From contig NZ_CBDCBI010000001.1 of NCBI RefSeq assembly GCF_965214355.1, positions 9,587 to 73,586 on the forward strand: a DNA stretch of 64,000 bases, written 5' to 3'. Both the position numbers and the translations under genes were made by a program. Source of the stretch: Novosphingobium sp. (lineage in GTDB: Bacteria; Pseudomonadota; Alphaproteobacteria; Sphingomonadales; Sphingomonadaceae). The notes under the pieces are model-generated. The model was not told the origin of the DNA and ran no database searches. It worked only from the letters and a program-made list of their open reading frames with translations. Positions 3,785 through 63,779 of this stretch are shown here, piece after piece; position 1 is the stretch's first letter; every line of letters begins with the position of its first letter.

Positions 3785-5342
3785 AATGCGCCTTCGCATC
3801 GTAGAGCGTTTCGAGCGTAATGGCGGCGATGCCCTGCTCGGTGGCATAGCGCTCGGTGTTCCGCCGTGCTTTCCCACGCACGAAGAACGGGATTTTCAGA
3901 AGTTCTTTTTCAGCGTCGCTGGACCAGCCGGACACAGCCGCAAAGATGTTCTCGGTCACAGGTTCGGCGGGCGAGTCTGCAGGGGCCGAAGGGGCCGCAG
4001 GCGCCGCGCCATGACCAAGATGCGAAGCGCCTGCGCCATCGCTGAATTCGAAATCATCGCGGAACATCGTCAGCAGATGCTCCTCCAGCCCCATCACGAG
4101 CGGATGGACCCACGTGTCGAACAGCACATTGGCGCCCTCGAAACCCATCTGCGGGCTGTAGCGCGCGGGAAAATCCTGCACATGGACCGGGGCGGAAATC
4201 ACGGCGCAAGGGATACGCAGGCGCTTGGCGATGTGCCGTTCCATCTGCGTGCCCAACACCAGCTCGGGCTGCGCCTCCTGGATCGCCGCTTCGACGTCGA
4301 GATAATCGTCGGTGATCAGCGGCTCGACGCCGTACAGCGCGGCCGCCTCACGAACATCGCGGGCAAATTCACGATTGTAGCAGCCCAGGCCCACCACTTC
4401 GAAACCGAGCTCATCACGGGCCACCCGCGCCGCTGCGACCGCGTGCGTCGCATCGCCGAAAATGAACACCCGCTTGCCGGTCAGATACGTCGAATCGACC
4501 GAGCGGCTCCACCAGGGCAGATTGCCCAGGCTTTCGAAGCGGCCGAGTGCGGCAGATGGGTCCAGCCCGCCCAGCATCGACACTTCGGTGATGAAGGCGC
4601 GCGTCGCGGCATGGCCGATCGGGACAGTCCGCACGGTTTTCTGGCCAAATGTCTTGTCCAGCCAGCGGCACGCCGTGTCGGCGATTTCAGGATACAGGCA
4701 GATATTGAAATCGGCCTGGCCCAGCCGCGCCAGGTCGGCCGGTGTCGCACCCAGCGGCGCGGTGACATTCACGTCGACACCGATTGTCGCCAGCATCCGG
4801 GTGACTTCGATAAGATCGTCGCGATGGCGAAAGCCCAGCGCCGTTGGCCCAAGCAGATTGGCCGTGGGCCGGCGCGTTTCGCGCGGAGCGCGCGTCACGT
4901 CTTTATCGGCGAGCTGGCGCACCAGTTGGTAAAACGTTTCTGCCGCGCCCCAGTTTTCCTTGCGCTGATAGCTTGGCAGCTCGAGCGCGATGACCGGGCA
5001 AGGCAACCGCATCGCTTCGGCCAGGCCCGCCGGGTCGTCCTGGATCAATTCGGCCGTGCACGATGCGCCGACCAGCATGGCCTGTGGTTTGAACCGCGCG
5101 TAAGCATCCCGCGCCGCCCGCTGAAACAGGTCGGCGGTATCCTTGCCCAGATCACGCGCCTGAAATGTCGTGTATGTGACCGGCGGGCGCTTTGCGCGAC
5201 GCTCGATCATCGTGAATAGCAGGTCGGCATAAGTATCGCCCTGGGGCGCGTGAAGGACGTAGTGCACGCCTTCCATCGCGGTTGCGATCCGCATTGCGCC
5301 GACATGCGGTGGTCCTTCGTAAGTCCAGACGGTCAGCTGCAT
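3774..5342 (-). CDS. bchB: DPOR subunit B
   Basis: 522 aa with [34 protein letters not shown] and C-terminal [15 protein letters not shown]. Confidence 0.96.
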
Positions 5343-56691: not shown

Positions 56692-57107
56692 CGGGCAAGC
56701 CTGTCGCCACCCGTAATTCGACAAGGACAAAATCACCGGTCGCAGCCGTTCGTGATCCGTTTACGCTTAGCGTCCACAAAACTCACTTTCGTGTAGTGAA
56801 CCTTCGAATCCTCAAAGTGTGCACTTCCTGTTAGCGTCCGCCCGGGAACATCATTGTTCCTGCCATTTAGAAAAGACACAAATTCCGCCAGATAGAAATG
56901 TCACACGCCGGGGTCAGCAGGGGCTGCGCGGAACCCTCCAAATTGTGCAGCGTAGCCCCTGCTGATGCACTGGGCTGGCATGGATGCGCCTCGGACCCGC
57001 TGCTCTGCAGTGGGCCCGCTTAATCTGCGGAACCGTTTAGTTGGCGGACAGTCTCCTCGTGCTCTGCTAACGGAGGTGTTTGACTGGACCAAAGCGCGAG
57101 GGGTAAA

Positions 57108-57377
57108 ATGGATCGCCAGGAACTTCACGATCGCTTGATTGCCGCAAACGTCGATCCGAGAGTATTCGACGTTCTCGGATCTGATCCGGATCCTTTCCCC
57201 GGAGACATCTTTGTTCTCCGCCATGTTCAAATACGTGACGCCGGCACACCGAATTATTGGACCACTTATTATTGTGAAAGAGGTGGGCGCTACTTTGCCA
57301 GCCGATTTGCGTCGGAAGATGAGGCGTGCAGGCATTTGTTTCTGCAGATTACCAAATCTCCCATAATCACGCCGTAA
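57108..57377 (+). CDS. Small hypothetical protein, possibly an orphan polymorphic-toxin immunity protein
   Basis: 89 aa with GAGG RBS and a WTTYYCERG...FASEDEAC motif; family assignment is from memory only. Confidence 0.6.
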   Translation: MDRQELHDRLIAANVDPRVFDVLGSDPDPFPGDIFVLRHVQIRDAGTPNYWTTYYCERGGRYFASRFASEDEACRHLFLQITKSPIITP

Positions 57378-57396
57378 TCATTGCCTGAAGTCGGCG

Positions 57397-58770
57397 TTAC
57401 TCCTTTTCCGCGAGCGTGAGTTGGCGCAGGGGAGGGCGTCCACGCTTGCGTTTAGCCGGCGCTAATGCGTCAGGCTCCGGCACCGCAAACATATGTGCCC
57501 CCTGCGATCGGCGCTTGGGTTCGTTGTTGTTGCGCTTCCGCACCGGCAGTTGCTCCTGCATCAGCTTGGCCATCATCAGCGCGGCATCGAGATGCTTGTT
57601 TTCGACAATCGCTGCCTGGTTCACTTTCCAGATCTTGTCGAACACGCGATAGGGCAGCACATGATCGCCGTGCCTGATTTCCAGGCTGCCATCAGGATAT
57701 TCGCACACATCCACACGCTTGCCCGCCAACGGCCGGGTGATCTCTGTCGGTTCGAGGATGAACAGCACCTTGTTGTAATGCAACGCCAAGGCCCGGGTTA
57801 CCGCGCGCTCTTCGCGCCAGACCATCACGACGCGCATATCATCATCCGAGGCGAGGGGGCGGTGAAGGTCGCGCGCATCGAACGCGGGCTTGGCAAACCG
57901 CGCATTATGCTGCGCCATGTAGGCCGGCAGAAACGCGTTAGCCTCAGCGATCGTTGCAATACCTTCGAGCCGCATCGCCTTGACCAACCGGTCCTGCAAA
58001 GTCGCATTCGCGCGCTCGACCCGACCCTTGGCTTGCGGAGAATTGGCGCAGATAATCTCGATGTTCAGTGTTTCCATCGCACGACCAAAATGCGTCATGC
58101 CGTCACCTTTGGCAGACGCTGTGTTGTTGCGGAAAACCGAGTGTTTGTCTGAATATAGCGCCACAGGCTTGCCGTGACGTTCGATATATTCGCGCGTCGC
58201 ATCCATGTAGGAAAACGTGCTCTCGCTCTCGACCATCTTCAGCTGCATCAGTTCGCTGGTTGCGTCGTCGATATAGACCAGCAAGGTGCATTGCGGCCCG
58301 CGATCCTCGAACCACCAGTGCTTCGAGCCATCGACCTGGATCAGTTCACCACGGCAATCACGCCGGTAGCGCGGTTGGTAAGGGCGAGGGCGCCGCGCCG
58401 CACGGTCTTGCCACAATCCGGCCCCCATCATCAACTGCCGCAAAGTCTCGCGCGCTATCGTGATCTTGTGCCGTTCGGCCAAATACTCGGTCGCCAAAGT
58501 CGGCCCGAAATCAGCATAATGCTCACGAACCAGCGTCATGATCCGCTCGCAAAAAGTATCGCTATGCCGCCTGTTGCTGGGCTTGCCGCGTTTGCGGGAA
58601 ACAAGGCCTTCGGCACCATCCGCGCGCAAACGGATCAGCAATCGACCGACCTGACGACGCGACAACCCCAAAAGTGTCGCAGCGTCCTCAACTCGCAGTT
58701 CGCGCCGCGTAACCCGAAGCAGTGTGTCGTATCGCGAGAGCTCGCTCTGGCTCATTGCCACCACCGTCAT
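57397..58770 (-). CDS. DDE transposase (IS481-related, ISNCY/IS1202 family)
   Basis: N-terminal HTH (LLGLSRRQVGRL), GELIQVDGS (D), ALYSDKH (D) and PQAKGRVER (E). Confidence 0.93.
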   Translation of the reverse strand: MTVVAMSQSELSRYDTLLRVTRRELRVEDAATLLGLSRRQVGRLLIRLRADGAEGLVSRKRGKPSNRRHSDTFCERIMTLVREHYADFGPTLATEYLAERHKITIARETLRQLMMGAGLWQDRAARRPRPYQPRYRRDCRGELIQVDGSKHWWFEDRGPQCTLLVYIDDATSELMQLKMVESESTFSYMDATREYIERHGKPVALYSDKHSVFRNNTASAKGDGMTHFGRAMETLNIEIICANSPQAKGRVERANATLQDRLVKAMRLEGIATIAEANAFLPAYMAQHNARFAKPAFDARDLHRPLASDDDMRVVMVWREERAVTRALALHYNKVLFILEPTEITRPLAGKRVDVCEYPDGSLEIRHGDHVLPYRVFDKIWKVNQAAIVENKHLDAALMMAKLMQEQLPVRKRNNNEPKRRSQGAHMFAVPEPDALAPAKRKRGRPPLRQLTLAEKE

Positions 58771-58890
58771 AGACACATCCTTCAGACACTGAAGGATGAC
58801 TATGCCACCACAGACCCGCGAGCGCCCATCAGCATGGGACATTTCTAAAATAGCGGGATGGGACATTTCTATCTGGCGCTTACAATTATC

Positions 58891-58918
58891 TGGTTCGATA
58901 ATATTAATTATGTTAATA
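58891..58918. other. dif-like XerC/XerD recombination site (xrs/pdif)
   Basis: TGGTTCGATAA-TATTAA-TTATGTTAATA has the 11-6-11 layout. The right arm matches E. coli dif TTATGTTAAAT at 9/11, the left arm ends ATAA, and the IS end lies 6 bp outside the left arm. Confidence 0.7.
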
Positions 58919-59005
58919 GCGACACCACGAGTGTCCATGTAATCTGTGTCCAGTGTGATGGGAATCGCTTGCGGTATCCGGTTTCCTTCAACAGTATCTG
59001 CGACC

Positions 59006-60220
59006 GTGTCCACTTCGTTCGCCACAACGCCTTGGCAGGCTGCACGCATCGAAATGCCCGGCGGTCGCAGGGCGTGGACGGTTGTGAATGACGATGGCGA
59101 TGTCGTCGAAAGCCTTCGTAACTGGATCGTGCATCTCGAACAAACCAGCACTTCGCCGAACACGATCCGTGCGTATGTTCGCCACGTTGTCGACTTCGCG
59201 AACTTCATCGTCGCCAATGGCGCCGGCATCGGTGAAGCCACGGTAGCGTTGTATGACAGTTTCCTGGCCTGGCGGCTTGCGCGGCGAAAAGATGCATTGC
59301 CGAGCCCGCGGCTGATCCTGCTGAACAAGCAGAAAACGCGAATTCTGGCGCCATCGACGCGCAATCAGATCCAGCTCGCGGTCAAATCGTTTTATCGCTT
59401 CTACAATGGCACCGACGACTTCGCGGTCGACACCCGTGATGTTGCCAGGGCTTATGACGGGCACCGACTTTACAAGCCGTTCCTGGAACATATCAGCCAG
59501 CGCCGCACGACGCGGCGCAAGGACCGCTATCTGTCAGGCGATCCCGGCAAGGTTCAGCAGCAGGTGCTCAAGAAGCGATTGACGCCAGGCGAGGTGTTGC
59601 GGCTAATCGAGGCTTGCGGGCTCGCGCGCGACGCGTTCCTGATTGTGCTGCTCTACAACACCGGCCTCAGGATCGGTGAAGCGCTGGGCTTGCGCCACGT
59701 TGACATCGATCTTGCCGAAAGGGTCATCTGGGTCGTTCCGCGCGAAGACAATGCCAATGAGGCCCGCGCGAAATCCGGGCGCACGCGCGGTGTGCCGGTG
59801 CACGAATACGTGCTGAACATGTACGTCGATTACCTCACCAGCAACGAATATCTGCCGGCGTTCGAGGCCGGCGCGGAATATGTCTTTGCCAATGTCAAAG
59901 CCGGCGCCATCGGCCATGCCATGGGCCTGTCTTACGCGCAGAAGCTCGCGGGTATGCTGAGGCAGCGCACCCATATCGCCTTCAGCTGGCACATGTTCCG
60001 CCACAGCCATGCATCCGAAGCGATCGCGGCGGGATACAGCCTGCTCGAAGTGGCTGATCGCCTTGGGCATGCCAGCCCGCAGACGACCGCAGCGTTCTAC
60101 CAGCACCTGTTCGCCTCGGAAATCCGCAGACTTTATCTCACAGGTCCCAACGAGGTGCATGAAAGACTTGGGAAACTTCGTGAGGCGGAACTGCTCGGGA
60201 AGGATTTGCGATGGGCATGA
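59006..60220 (+). CDS. Tyrosine recombinase, Tn554 TnpA-like
   Basis: SPNTIRAY, LYNTGLRIGEAL (R), WHMFRH (HxxR) and LGHASPQTTAAFY (H, Y); start uncertain. Confidence 0.88.
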   Translation: MSTSFATTPWQAARIEMPGGRRAWTVVNDDGDVVESLRNWIVHLEQTSTSPNTIRAYVRHVVDFANFIVANGAGIGEATVALYDSFLAWRLARRKDALPSPRLILLNKQKTRILAPSTRNQIQLAVKSFYRFYNGTDDFAVDTRDVARAYDGHRLYKPFLEHISQRRTTRRKDRYLSGDPGKVQQQVLKKRLTPGEVLRLIEACGLARDAFLIVLLYNTGLRIGEALGLRHVDIDLAERVIWVVPREDNANEARAKSGRTRGVPVHEYVLNMYVDYLTSNEYLPAFEAGAEYVFANVKAGAIGHAMGLSYAQKLAGMLRQRTHIAFSWHMFRHSHASEAIAAGYSLLEVADRLGHASPQTTAAFYQHLFASEIRRLYLTGPNEVHERLGKLREAELLGKDLRWA

Positions 60221-62343
60221 CGCCGCTGGCGGTAGTCGGCGGCACACCGCACGATACCGATCGCTACAGCAACTGGCTTGAAGGGCGTCTTGCTGAAATA
60301 TCCCCCCTCCTCGTCACCAATACCATCTGGTCGGACGCCGTAATGCGAGAGGTGTTCGGCCATCCCTGGTTGAGCCAGACATATGCAAGCCTGCCGCTTG
60401 GCGCTGCGGTTCCGGTCCTGACCAACGAGATCAAGACGTACCTGGCGGCATCCGTGCTCGACGATCGCAAGGCGGACGCCCACTGGTTCCAGCGCCGCAT
60501 CCCGGTGATCCGCTATCTCGTCGAGGAAGGTGCGGACCTGCTTCGCCACTTTGAGGCGACCTGCCTTGCCGACATCCCTCACCCGGGCTTCGCGCCATCC
60601 GATAACGCGGGAGCGCGCAAATCGAACCAGCACAGCGATGCAGTGCTGGCGCTTTACGCCGCCTGGTATGGCACGAACTATGGGCAGCGCAGGCAAAGCC
60701 AGACCCGCCAGTGGATCCGGGATGGCGAAATCGTCACCACCCAGTACCGCTCACCGGAAATACAGCTGTTCGGCGATATCCATCGCTTCGCGATCATCAA
60801 CCGGGCGCAGATGGCGCCGATGCATGACCGTGACATCATCCTGCTCAACGATCTCTACAGCGAAGACGACACGCGCTTCCGTGATCGGCAGCGGTTGAAC
60901 GACACCTATATCAGCTTGCTGAACTTCGAGCCGTGGCTTCGCCCGCTGATGCGCGGCTTCCTGCTCGACAAGGTCGCGCATGGCGAATTGGCGCCGGCCA
61001 CCATGGTGACGTTGATCTCGCGCTTGCGTCTGTTCGCGCGGTTCCTGTGCGAACAGGAAATTGCCGCCGCCGGACAAATCAACGAGCCGCTGATGGAGCG
61101 CTACCTGGCCTGGGGGAACACGCGGCACACCGCCGGCAAAAACTGGTACACCGATATCGTCCAACTCCTGCGCGCGGCGCCGGTATTGCTGCCGGGGCAG
61201 TGGCCTCGGATTGCGCTCGACAAGCGCGCGGCACGGCGCATCCGCTACAAGCAGGCGCCAGATGACCCCCGCAACCGGCTCTACGCTTCGCGTGAAGGCG
61301 CCAACCGGGCGGCGCCTCCCGAGGCCCTGGCCGCCATGGTGGCCAGGCTCGATGAACTGCCCGCGCCCATCCCTGCGATCTTCATGATCGGGATCACAAC
61401 CGGGGCACGAGCGGAAGACCTGCATGCCCTGCTCTTCGACTGCCTGCGGCCCGATCCGCACGACAAGCGATTCATGCTGTTCACGTTCTGGCAGAACAAG
61501 GTCAGTCGCTGGAACACCAAGCCTTTGCTGGCAACCGATCCAGCGCACCGGACCATGATCGAGCTGATCGAAGCCCAGCAACATCGTATCCGGGCGCGGT
61601 ATGGTCACGCCACCAAGTACCTGTTCCCGGTCTTTTATGGGAAACGGGAATCGTTCCTCGGCAACAACTGGACTTTGCAGGAGCTCAGAATGCTGAGCCT
61701 CAGGCACGGGATCGTCGATGGCGAAGGCAATCCGTTCGACTTCTCGTGGCATCCGCTGCGCCACCATCGCGGGACACAGATGGCAGCCGAAGGGCACGAC
61801 ATCCTGAGCATCATGTTCGAGCTCGGCCATGCTTCGCCCGACATGGCCTCGATGTACGTCAACAAGCGCCTCGACCTCAAAAAGAACACCTTGCTGCGCA
61901 AAGGCGGCGGGCAGTTCTTCACGATTGCCGGCAAGGTCGACGAGGCCGTCGGCGATCTCCTGCTGCGCAAGGAAACCATGCTGGCCACACGGGTTTGCGG
62001 CGGTGCCTGCACCCTGCCGGGCCAGCTTGGCGAATGGTGCGAGCATGCCCATGCCTGTCTGACCTGCCGGTTCTTCCGCGCCGATGGTGACGACCTCGAG
62101 CACTTCCGCGGCGAACGCGCCGGACTTTACGTCGCGATCGCAGGGCTCGAGCAGGAAGCCCAGAATTACGAGGAGGGCGGCCAAACCCGCTTGGCAGACA
62201 TCGCTCGCAAGCGGTTGCAGCGGAACAAAGACGCTGTCCACAACACCGACACCATCGTCCGTTCCATCGAGGAGCACGGCCACTACAAGGGCGAAAAGCA
62301 GCGCTACAAGCCAGCCTCTGCTCGGGAAGACGCGAAATCATGA
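60211..62343 (+). CDS. Large tyrosine recombinase, Tn554 TnpB-like
   Basis: TTGARAED, WHPLRHHRGT, LGHASPDMASMY and Cys-rich C-terminal GACTLP...CEHAHACLTCRFF. Confidence 0.88.
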   Translation: MGMTPLAVVGGTPHDTDRYSNWLEGRLAEISPLLVTNTIWSDAVMREVFGHPWLSQTYASLPLGAAVPVLTNEIKTYLAASVLDDRKADAHWFQRRIPVIRYLVEEGADLLRHFEATCLADIPHPGFAPSDNAGARKSNQHSDAVLALYAAWYGTNYGQRRQSQTRQWIRDGEIVTTQYRSPEIQLFGDIHRFAIINRAQMAPMHDRDIILLNDLYSEDDTRFRDRQRLNDTYISLLNFEPWLRPLMRGFLLDKVAHGELAPATMVTLISRLRLFARFLCEQEIAAAGQINEPLMERYLAWGNTRHTAGKNWYTDIVQLLRAAPVLLPGQWPRIALDKRAARRIRYKQAPDDPRNRLYASREGANRAAPPEALAAMVARLDELPAPIPAIFMIGITTGARAEDLHALLFDCLRPDPHDKRFMLFTFWQNKVSRWNTKPLLATDPAHRTMIELIEAQQHRIRARYGHATKYLFPVFYGKRESFLGNNWTLQELRMLSLRHGIVDGEGNPFDFSWHPLRHHRGTQMAAEGHDILSIMFELGHASPDMASMYVNKRLDLKKNTLLRKGGGQFFTIAGKVDEAVGDLLLRKETMLATRVCGGACTLPGQLGEWCEHAHACLTCRFFRADGDDLEHFRGERAGLYVAIAGLEQEAQNYEEGGQTRLADIARKRLQRNKDAVHNTDTIVRSIEEHGHYKGEKQRYKPASAREDAKS

Positions 62344-62819
62344 CCATGGGACCCGATCTGCGGATCGCAACACTCAACGATGCCCGCAGCCGCCGCAGTG
62401 CAGAAAAGCGCGCCGCGGTCGAGGATGCCATCATGCGCCTGCGCGAAACGAAGCAGGTCGTGACGTTCGTGTCGGTGGCCCGCGAGGCCAAGGTCAGCCG
62501 CCAATACCTCTATAACAACTTCGTCGACGAGATCGGAGAGGAACGCGTCGAAACCCGTGCGGAAACCGAAGTAATTAACGGCAAGAAGGTCCCGCTGCGA
62601 ACGCCCGAGGAATACCGGCACATCGAAGCCGCGCTTCGCAACAAGATCGATCGCCTTGAAACCGAGCTCCGCGACGCGCGCGCCGAAAAAGCCAAGGCGG
62701 ACCGAACAGCCGAACGCGAGCGCGGCAAGGCTGAGCATTGGCACCAGCTCTACACAGTCGTCCTGACGCGCGTATCGGCGGGAAATGCGCCTGCTCCGCC
62801 GCCGCCGGCCGAAGATTAA
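62340..62819 (+). CDS. TnpC-like (DUF6262-type) accessory protein
   Basis: AVEDAIMRL...VTFVSVAREAKVSRQYLY HTH followed by a coiled coil; ATGA overlap with the TnpB-like gene. Confidence 0.82.
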   Translation: MTMGPDLRIATLNDARSRRSAEKRAAVEDAIMRLRETKQVVTFVSVAREAKVSRQYLYNNFVDEIGEERVETRAETEVINGKKVPLRTPEEYRHIEAALRNKIDRLETELRDARAEKAKADRTAERERGKAEHWHQLYTVVLTRVSAGNAPAPPPPAED

Positions 62820-62961
62820 ACCGTCGCGCATCGATCGAGTTACGCTCAAGGGAGTTTGAAGTGAGCCGCCTGCGGCGTCTTGCACTTCCAACTCCCTTGG
62901 GCGTCCAAATTATGGGCGAAACACAGTTGACACACGTTCTGCTATCAACCGATTGAAATTA

Positions 62962-63372
62962 CTATAAAAGACGCGACCTGGTGCTGATATATGTTAAATG
63001 ACCGCGGGGTTTGGCGGCCCTGGAACTCGTTGTGCCGCCGGCAGCGTGCTGGCTCACAGGCGTCCCGTCGATCAGGATCACACGGTCCTCGTCAATAATC
63101 TTGCGAAAAGCTTCACTGGTGGTCGCCCAATCGAGCAGATCCACTTTCCACGGCAAGTCAGACTCGTCAAAGGCGTCTGCAAGGTCACTCAGCAGCGCCG
63201 CAGGCAACGGATGTTTACCGGCCAAGGCCAGATCGAGATCGGAATAGCGCTGCGCATTGCCCTTGGTTCGGCTACCGAACGCCCAGACAGCGATGCCCGT
63301 TGGCACATGCCTCGCGAGCGTCTCGAGCAGGATCGCCTCATGTTCCGGGCTCAGGTCCAGCAACCCCGTCAT
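62962..63372 (-). CDS. Minimal nucleotidyltransferase (MNT) antitoxin
   Basis: AFGSRTKGNAQRYSDLDL (GS-x10-DxD) and KVDLLD; ATGA overlap with the HEPN gene. Confidence 0.88.
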   Translation of the reverse strand: MTGLLDLSPEHEAILLETLARHVPTGIAVWAFGSRTKGNAQRYSDLDLALAGKHPLPAALLSDLADAFDESDLPWKVDLLDWATTSEAFRKIIDEDRVILIDGTPVSQHAAGGTTSSRAAKPRGHLTYISTRSRLL

Positions 63373-63779
63373 TCCGTGCCCGCGCGTTCGACAAGGCGGT
63401 CGCGCAAAAAACCGGCTTCGAAGATGAAATCAGGTATGCTTGCGACCACCTCCAAGGCTTTGGCCTCGTCATAGGTATGGGACGTGATGTTGCGCTTATC
63501 GCGATATAGCTTCCATTGCGCCCACTCGCCACGCAGCAGTCCCTGTTCAGAACCGGTACGGATCAGCGCAGGAAACGACATATGCTCGACAACCTCTGGG
63601 GTCGGGGCGGTTTGGGTCAGGTAGCGTTTCAACATTTTGTGGCTGAGATCATAGGTGAATTCAAAGCGCTGAACGAGGCCGTCGCGAATTTGCTGGTCCG
63701 ACGTATCCTTCAGATAGCGGGCATAGCCCTCCTCCAATCGCGCGAGTGCAGATGCCAGCGGGGTTAGGTCAAGCGCCAT
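63369..63779 (-). CDS. HEPN-domain toxin (HI0074/nucleotidyltransferase substrate-binding family)
   Basis: DGLVQRFEFTYDLSHK and RNITSHTY (Rx4H followed by Tyr). Confidence 0.88.
   Translation of the reverse strand: MALDLTPLASALARLEEGYARYLKDTSDQQIRDGLVQRFEFTYDLSHKMLKRYLTQTAPTPEVVEHMSFPALIRTGSEQGLLRGEWAQWKLYRDKRNITSHTYDEAKALEVVASIPDFIFEAGFLRDRLVERAGTE

Follow-up and report, generated by a model that had tools for sequence, protein, structure and literature searches.

A cargo-free Tn554-family element in the XerD arm of dif-like sites in Novosphingobium

Introduction

The dif site, at which bacteria disentangle chromosomes and plasmids, is one of the few sequences that nearly every bacterial chromosome must keep. 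Here we describe a three-gene element, tnpA-tnpB-tnpC, that lies at such a site in a 64,000-nucleotide stretch of Novosphingobium sp. DNA (termed the window in what follows; contig NZ_CBDCBI010000001.1 of assembly GCF_965214355.1, positions 9,587 to 73,586). The host DNA is a two-contig genome of 4.27 Mb, in which the window falls on the 126-kb contig C1 and the other contig, C2, is the 4.14-Mb chromosome. The element carries no cargo and occupies window positions 58916-62996, that is 4,081 bp including one copy of a short crossover core. An initial annotation, made from the sequence alone, had described a Tn554-like recombinase triad anchored on a site resembling dif. We give the genes, the ends mapped from multiple copies, the insertion site and the relatives of this element, and then weigh how it may integrate. 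Coordinates are those of the window, on the plus strand unless stated otherwise.

Genes of the element

The three genes are co-oriented, with overlaps of 10 and 4 bases, and 177 bp separate the tnpC stop from the right end, with no room taken by cargo in the window copy. The first, tnpA (59006-60220), encodes a short Xer-like tyrosine recombinase of 404 aa, counted from a GTG at 59006 in an open reading frame that is open from 58946. It matches the Pfam domain Phage_integrase (2.5e-26); its best NCBIfam models are XerA, XerC and XerD, at 1e-22 to 1e-30 and all far below the model cut-offs, and its R..HxxR..H..Y set aligns with those of archaeal XerA and Tn554 TnpA.

The second gene, tnpB (60211-62343), encodes a long tyrosine recombinase of 710 aa, in which the Phage_integrase match is weak (1.5e-07, residues 376-552). 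Across 36 homologues, residues R400, H514, R517, H540 and Y549 are invariant, as are C600, C610, C616 and C619. In an AlphaFold model of TnpB (predicted local distance difference test score, pLDDT, 80.8) the fold is closest to those of XerH, IntI, XerA and Cre, matched over ∼335 residues, and outside this match the model has an additional N-terminal domain of ∼240 aa and a C-terminal helical region. Residues 595-625 (window ∼61993-62085) hold a Cys/His cluster, C600, C610, H612, C616 and C619, that is invariant in the homologues. The cluster is shared with Tn554 TnpB and is modelled by AlphaFold at low confidence; it is probably a zinc-binding module.

The third gene, tnpC (62340-62819), encodes a small protein of 159 aa, whose match to Pfam DUF6262 (3.9e-06, 27.5 bits) is below the 29-bit cut-off. 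Its conserved N-terminal segment aligns with Tn554 TnpC, the alignment spanning most of the latter, and its putative fold is a helix-turn-helix with a coiled coil. The picture given by the initial annotation, of a translationally coupled triad with intact catalytic motifs and no cargo, is borne out by the overlaps, the invariant TnpB residues and the short tail behind tnpC.

As a reference for Tn554 we took the tnpA, tnpB, tnpC, ant(9)-Ia, erm(A) element on Enterococcus faecalis plasmid NZ_CP102072.1. TnpA is 31% identical to its Tn554 counterpart over 359 aa (E 9e-50), and TnpB is 29% identical over 301 aa (E 3e-22), with both the catalytic domain and the Cys-rich C-terminal CxxC motif; TnpC is 37% identical over 41 aa (E 5e-07). 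This direct homology of all three proteins places the triad in the Tn554 family, as first proposed.

Ends and junctions

A second copy of the element in the same genome, at C2:2181502-2185625, matches window 58878-63001. There is no mismatch within the element; the five mismatches between the two genomic copies all fall at 58887-58896, to its left, and on the right the identity reaches 63001 because the flanking AATGA is common to both targets. The ends are also fixed by seven plasmid copies from Novosphingobium and Sphingobium (pNL1, pNL2, ES2-1 p1, p2 and p4, WTD-1 and TomTYG65; 79-87% identity). On the tnpA side of these a XerC-type arm and a hexamer, different each time, are followed by the constant TTATGT(T/A)AATA(G/C)CGA(C/T)ACC, and on the tnpC side ...GGTG(T/C)TGATAT-ATGT(T/A)A is followed by variable DNA that starts with AAT or a near variant. 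Some contigs of draft assemblies, 4,083-4,088 bp long, begin and stop exactly at the element ends.

The left junction in the window begins with target DNA outside the element: the XerC-binding arm of a plasmid dif-like site, TGGTTCGATAA (58891-58901), which fits the genus consensus ..GATTGATAA, and the central region TATTAA (58902-58907). The XerC arm region differs between the two genomic copies and among all the others, and the central hexamer varies among near-identical elements, being TATATA, TATATC, TAATGA, TTTACA or TAATCA at other copies. There follows at attL a hybrid XerD-type arm, TTATGTTAATA (58908-58918), of which 58908-58915 are target-derived and 58916-58918 element-derived. Within it lies the attL copy of the 6-bp crossover core, ATGTTA (58910-58915), the identity common to attL and attR; the full common stretch is TATGTTAA in Alphaproteobacteria and ATGTTAA in Gammaproteobacteria. 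Counted along the XerD arm TTATGTTAAAT, the core at both junctions, ATGTTA or ATGTAA, falls on positions 3-8. The element proper starts with its left terminal arm (left inverted repeat, IRL), ATAGCGACACC (58916-58926), an imperfect inverted repeat of the right arm GGTGCTGATAT with 8 of 11 bases complementary, whose pattern ATA....(C/T)ACC is kept in alpha- and gammaproteobacterial relatives. The left end first proposed, 58912-58920, falls on this true junction.

Further in are two subterminal direct boxes, GTGTCCATGT and TGTGTCCA (58931-58952), with columns conserved in an alignment of 14 alpha- and gammaproteobacterial left ends, and a third left-end box, CGTGTCCAC (59005-59013). We regard the two direct boxes as candidate accessory binding sites for the recombinases. 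Near the other end, downstream of tnpC, a hairpin with 22-nt arms and a 19-nt loop (62842-62904; inverted repeat I4, 91% complementary) is kept in alphaproteobacterial copies and is likely to be a transcription stop or a binding structure. It is followed by the right subterminal region (62920-62976), where an alignment of 12 right ends has inverted boxes, ACACAGTTGACAC here and ACAATGGACAG in relatives, with AAGACNCG near the end; TGGACA, in this region, repeats the TGTCCA boxes of the left end in reverse complement. The TGTCCA/TGTCTA motifs at the element ends, inverted in orientation between one end and the other, are conserved from Alpha- to Gammaproteobacteria. The GTGTC boxes picked out initially are real.

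The right terminal arm (IRR), GGTGCTGATAT (62980-62990), is common to both genomic copies, and its pattern GGTG(Y)(T/G)(G/C)ATA(T/C) is kept in all 25 copies with a right end. It is followed by the attR copy of the core, ATGTTA (62991-62996), and then by AAT (62997-62999), the outer three bases of the original XerD arm, split from the remaining dif. The initial annotation had put the right end at GCTATCAAC (62941-62949); this turned out to be an internal sequence, in the region common to both copies and only partly conserved. The true end lies 47 bp further, at 62980-62996, as mapped with the second copy in the genome and another 24 copies in which both ends are present.

The left junction can then be written as a host-specific XerC arm and central region followed by TTATGTTA/ATA..., and the right junction as ...GGTGYTGATAT-ATGTTA/AAT (slash, junction). 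Joining the flanks gives ...TTATGTTA/AAT, an intact XerD arm of the genus. There is no target duplication: the joined flanks are an intact dif, with nothing doubled beyond the shared core. The terminal repeats consist only of the 11-bp arms, paired at 8/11, and an inverted-repeat search found no longer ones. According to the footprint rule for Tn554 and for the strand-biased circularizing elements (SEs), attL retains the target hexamer and attR carries that of the donor (PMC10214605); on this rule the attR copy of the core would be the one that travels with the element. In 6 of 25 copies the attL and attR cores are unlike, their fifth base being T in one and A in the other (ATGTTA versus ATGTAA), which is consistent with the rule.

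Two further observations concern the ends. The whole-element contigs (L048-L051) come from Novosphingobium olei, Sphingobium olei, S. xenophagum and S. fluviale, one of them with a coverage label of 312; such contigs are consistent with a collapsed multi-copy repeat or with a free circular form. At a locus from an uncultured gammaproteobacterium (L069) there are two copies of the right arm plus core, 741 bp apart, at 4929 and 5670 bases past the tnpB start, an arrangement that points to nested or tandem insertion or to an att site within the element.

The insertion site

The 28-mer TGGTTCGATAA-TATTAA-TTATGTTAATA (58891-58918) had been called dif-like from its letters, and the genus-wide pattern upholds this. 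A dif pattern allowing at most two mismatches has one or two matches in 28 of 36 genomes of the genus, and its reversed control has none. The genus consensus, ..GATTGATAA-TATATA-TTATGTTAAAT, is present once in most genomes and has the 11-6-11 architecture of dif. The 20-base core of the window site has two matches in the 4.27-Mb genome, one per replicon, each at the left junction of an element. The chromosome has a single dif-like site, the one in which its element copy sits, and its cumulative GC skew reaches its maximum 5 kb away, at 2,190,437. The genome encodes homologues of both XerC and XerD.

Joined flanks of the chromosomal copy read ...GATAATATTAATTATGTTA/AATGAAAC..., a complete dif. 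The empty site in relatives could be found as well: at least 10 genomes of the same genus have an uninterrupted dif at the same distance from the same right-flank gene. Occupied sites all read TTATGT(T/A)AATA and then continue into the element, and the empty dif of 28 relatives ends in ...TTATGTTAAAT. For an empty plasmid site of the pNL1 type, a search with the joined pNL1 flanks returned no record spanning both of them. Two identical copies on two replicons, together with the empty sites in relatives, support the view that the element is mobile.

Relatives extend this beyond a single genome. There are 94 relatives of TnpB in a large protein collection, and we examined 36 loci from species genomes plus two contigs. 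Of the 37 copies with readable upstream DNA, 34 have a full XerC arm, 6 bp and TTATGTNAATA at the tnpA end. Their orientation is constant, with tnpA adjoining the XerC arm and central region, in keeping with the proposal of the initial annotation that the element targets dif and plasmid dif (pdif) sites. The dif-inserted copies come from Novosphingobium, Sphingobium, Sphingomonas, Sphingopyxis, Azospirillum, Halomonas, Alcanivorax and Salinicola, and from metagenome-assembled genomes (MAGs). Those of the gammaproteobacterial group (Halomonas, Alcanivorax, Salinicola and MAGs; TnpB ∼40% identical) sit in a canonical ..GCGCATAA-TGTATA-TTATGTTAA/TA, and in the complete chromosome of Alcanivorax sp. 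IL2 the sole ATAA-N6-TTATGTTAA site is the element junction. Within the order the element is rare, with 2 carriers among 401 Sphingomonadales species genomes.

Two ways in which the association with dif might have been misleading were named at the outset. One was that homologous triads would sit at unrelated targets; homologues down to ∼38% TnpB identity are instead located at dif. The other was that the 28-mer belongs to the element, as the promoter of tnpA or as its own recombinase site, and this we rejected, since copies of a constant element have a XerC arm and central region that differ from one site to the next.

Some sites stand out individually. Both dif sites of the present genome have an unusual central region, TATTAA, as against TATATA in the genus. 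L007 (G017:C32), where there is no tnpABC, has a dif-like site whose arm, TTATGTTAATA, is the variant also present at the attL of the element; next come AATAACAATGG and a VapBC-like pair. This may be either a natural plasmid variant or a scar.

Cargo of relatives and earlier reports

Gammaproteobacterial relatives from Halomonas and other sources (L045, L069, L070, L073 and L074) are 6-12 kb long and hold defence genes between tnpC and the right end. Their cargo includes Ppl (3.8e-128) with a type III restriction-modification system, a HamB-type helicase (Hachiman-like), a Ppl/Lamassu-like ATPase, PDC-S39 and a LmuB_C protein.

The initial annotation had offered the element as a candidate new one, which is true only in part. 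Van Houdt et al. (2012, Table 2) already listed the tnpABC of Novosphingobium aromaticivorans pNL1 and pNL2 as Tn554-like and probably mobile, with no ends or target given (PMC3414803). These elements belong to the same lineage as that of the window (87% DNA identity, 89% TnpB identity), and their dif junctions are shown in the present analysis. Our literature search found no paper placing a Tn554-like element in dif. What is new would be a lineage of Tn554-family transposons with dif as its attachment site, the element type itself not being wholly so.

Integration model and its alternatives

We consider it highly probable that the element is a minimal, intact site-specific transposon in the Tn554 family, that it has been active recently, and that its attachment site is a XerD arm: that of dif in chromosomes, and that of dif-like dimer-resolution sites in plasmids. 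On this reading TnpA and TnpB, with TnpC helping, would link one end to the other, giving a circle or an equivalent intermediate. The end-to-end junction, GGTGCTGATAT-ATGTTA-ATAGCGACACC (GGTGYTGATAT-ATGTTA-ATASCGAYACC), would be a palindromic tyrosine-recombinase site with two arms and a 6-bp spacer, and would recombine with the identical hexamer in dif. The first bases of the element, ATA, would then rebuild the arm as TTATGTTAATA, so that a near-normal dif stays at attL and the host can therefore presumably still resolve dimers. For such an element dif would be a conserved, single-copy safe harbour, and the dif-like sites of plasmids would provide a route between cells.

Host XerCD would not be the catalyst of insertion in this model. 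XerCD cuts at the borders of the central region. attL and attR have only (T)ATGTTAA in common, a stretch within the XerD arm, and attL keeps a host-specific central region. With the core in the XerD arm and no central region at attR, insertion is best attributed to the element's own recombinases, and the catalysis by host XerCD that the initial annotation had allowed for does not fit these junctions. In the chromosome of the present genome, the Alcanivorax chromosome and a Novosphingobium MAG, the rebuilt arm TTATGTTAATA is part of the only dif-like site.

Several points weigh against the model or limit it. Three copies do not have a complete dif: L078 has only the central region and XerD arm, L072 only the XerC arm, and L075 none of it. 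A relative from Microvirga (TnpB 33% identical) is not adjacent to a dif-like site; because of this relative, and because Tn554 itself targets radC, dif targeting is a trait of one clade within the family. That the rebuilt arm TTATGTTAATA binds XerD and functions is suggested only by its status as the sole site in the three chromosomes just named. The cleavage positions are placed by sequence only to within the 7-8 shared bases. Finally, the right arm resembles the XerC arm of its host class and covaries with it (GGTGTTGATAT and ..TTGATAA in Alphaproteobacteria, GGTGTGCATAC and ..GCGCATAA in Gammaproteobacteria), and this may leave room for a host Xer cofactor.

Such a cofactor is the substance of the alternative that survives best, a mixed mechanism in which the recombinases of the element act together with host XerC or XerD, at dif or at the right arm, the host protein being a target selector or architectural partner. 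Besides the covarying right arm, it has on its side that TnpA is the most Xer-like protein of the triad and that the host has XerC and XerD homologues to offer. There is also a precedent in the Tn7-like element Tn6022, where a transposon-encoded XerC-like protein acts with host XerD (PMC11014353). The core, however, lies within the XerD footprint, so that XerD bound to dif would cover the very site of exchange, and attR, whose XerC-like arm and XerD remnant are not separated by a spacer, is thus not a XerCD substrate. Xer-like arms are in any case expected for a recombinase of Xer ancestry, and L078 retains the junction without a recognisable XerC arm. Taking these together, we think a mixed mechanism rather improbable.

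Much less probable again is integration of the kind known from integrative mobile elements exploiting Xer (IMEX), where host XerCD would integrate and excise the element at a dif-like attP and tnpABC would be a passenger or regulatory module. Like CTX-phi and the gonococcal genetic island, our element is found at dif and retains a dif-like site at one junction. IMEX, however, encode no integrase, and two intact recombinases with TnpC are all that this element contains. Nor is its integrated form bounded by two dif-like sites. At attR, GGTGCTGATAT-ATGTTA-AAT, a central region is lacking, and the one at attL belongs to the host site and is no hybrid. The core common to both junctions falls in the XerD arm and so outside the points where XerCD cleaves. 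On this junction anatomy we rejected simple XerCD integration.

The weakest alternative, a non-mobile dimer-resolution module linked to its own site in the manner of XerS-difSL or XerH-difH, is suggested by recombinase genes directly beside a resolution site and by XerH as the best fold match of TnpB, but we rejected such a fixed resolvase as exceedingly improbable on the presence/absence pattern (2 of the 401 genomes of the order) and the empty sites in close relatives, with identical copies on two replicons in different flanks, sharp boundaries, variable cargo in relatives and the host's own XerC and XerD standing against it as well.

For a Tn554-family transposon acting through its own recombinases, a broader picture can be offered tentatively, as a possibility that falls short of an even chance. 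A clade with TnpB identity of at least ∼38%, found in Alpha- and Gammaproteobacteria and in one Burkholderiaceae MAG, could be specialised on the XerD arm of dif, using it as a landing site that is nearly universal. Its members would insert independently of XerCD, rebuild a working dif, move between chromosome and plasmid by way of Xer sites and, in Gammaproteobacteria, ferry anti-phage defence to the terminus.

Neighbouring DNA

To the left of the site lies an insertion sequence (IS) of IS1202 type (ISNCY; 56886-58884, minus strand; NCBIfam transpos_ISNCY_2, 1.5e-148), described here for context only. It ends ∼6 bp from the XerC arm; its left coordinate, 56886, is taken from the initial annotation and an inverted repeat. 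The same IS end is found at the same distance at the occupied sites of ES2-1 p4, TomTYG65, G235 and L059; in the relative G466 it lies next to a chromosomal dif that is empty. Loci with an IS1202-type end next to the site are L034, L040, L044/L055, L059 and L088. In the Microvirga relative away from dif (L085; Microvirga sp. VF16 plasmid pMVF16-4), an ISNCY transposase is immediately upstream of tnpABC, and the interval between the two has no dif-like site.

The preference of the IS1202 family for dif has been published, ISAjo2-related IS seeking out both dif and pdif, whether chromosomal or plasmid-borne, and always in one orientation (PMC10132070). Such IS are DDE transposons and insert ∼5 bp to the outer side of the XerC arm; the present tyrosine-recombinase element instead recombines within the XerD arm. 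The dif of these bacteria is thus hit by two unrelated, independent targeting elements.

The 9-mer GCTTACAAT, consisting of the IS end and two bases, is present both at 58878-58886 and at C2:2185617-2185625. The latter position is 6 bp to the left of a chromosomal dif that has no IS beside it, and the 9-mer there is probably the relic of a deleted IS copy. We rejected GCTTACAAT as a part of the element or of a longer target, the same IS end being beside the empty dif in G466. Directly to the right and outside the element, on the minus strand, are genes for a toxin-antitoxin pair, an MntA-type nucleotidyltransferase antitoxin and its HI0074/HepT-type partner (62962-63779).

Implications

The elements known to exploit dif either borrow XerCD (IMEX) or land beside the site (the IS1202 family), and entry into the XerD arm by an element's own recombinases, with repair of the arm, would be a further way. 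It would help to explain the build-up of mobile DNA at the terminus and at plasmid resolution sites, where here an IS and a transposon share one site. Relatives bring Ppl, Hachiman-like, type III restriction-modification and Lamassu-like systems to dif. At 4.1 kb, cargo-free and with a defined 28-bp target, the element could serve as a proteobacterial model for the poorly understood Tn554 mechanism; the target is also present in similar form in laboratory strains of Escherichia coli, and circular intermediates, footprints and the role of TnpC thus become directly testable. For annotation, pairs of genes called 'tyrosine-type recombinase/integrase' beside dif can now be named and their ends predicted.

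Comparison with known systems

Gene order and overlaps, homology of three proteins, the catalytic sets, the absence of duplication and a single oriented site used through a 6-bp core are features of Tn554 that we find here. Family members such as Tn554, Tn558, Tn559, Tn6260 and Tn6674, from staphylococci and enterococci, have the same order and overlaps of genes for a short recombinase, a long recombinase and a small TnpC, and share with this element short imperfect terminal repeats, no target duplication and one preferred site in one orientation. The core of Tn554, GATGTA, is 6 bp like the ATGTTA/ATGTAA of this element. The differences are in the target, the XerD arm of dif or pdif as against att554 in radC; in the hosts, here Alpha- and Gammaproteobacteria, with protein identities of 29-37%; in TnpB, which is 80 aa longer than that of Tn554; and in cargo, absent from the window copy and consisting in its relatives of defence systems, not resistance genes.

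RIT elements have three recombinases of ordinary size and long terminal inverted repeats, whereas here the third gene encodes a 159-aa DUF6262/TnpC-like protein without a recombinase domain and there is no long terminal inverted repeat. GInts (ginABCD) and SEs (intA-tfp-intB-srap) are closer, being likewise multi-recombinase and site-specific, with a TnpC-like protein and 6-bp footprints; they have four core genes, however, of which one encodes a recombinase-fold protein (GinC/Tfp) without the catalytic set, whereas here there are three genes and both recombinases are complete. No ginC-ginD or tfp-srap block turned up in Alphaproteobacteria in the published surveys (PMC10214605). IMEX such as CTX-phi, TLC, VGJ and the gonococcal genetic island resemble the element in occupying dif and in leaving a working dif at one junction, as would be the case here, but they have no recombinase of their own and exchange strands in the central region through XerCD, whereas this element brings two recombinases and places its crossover in the XerD arm.

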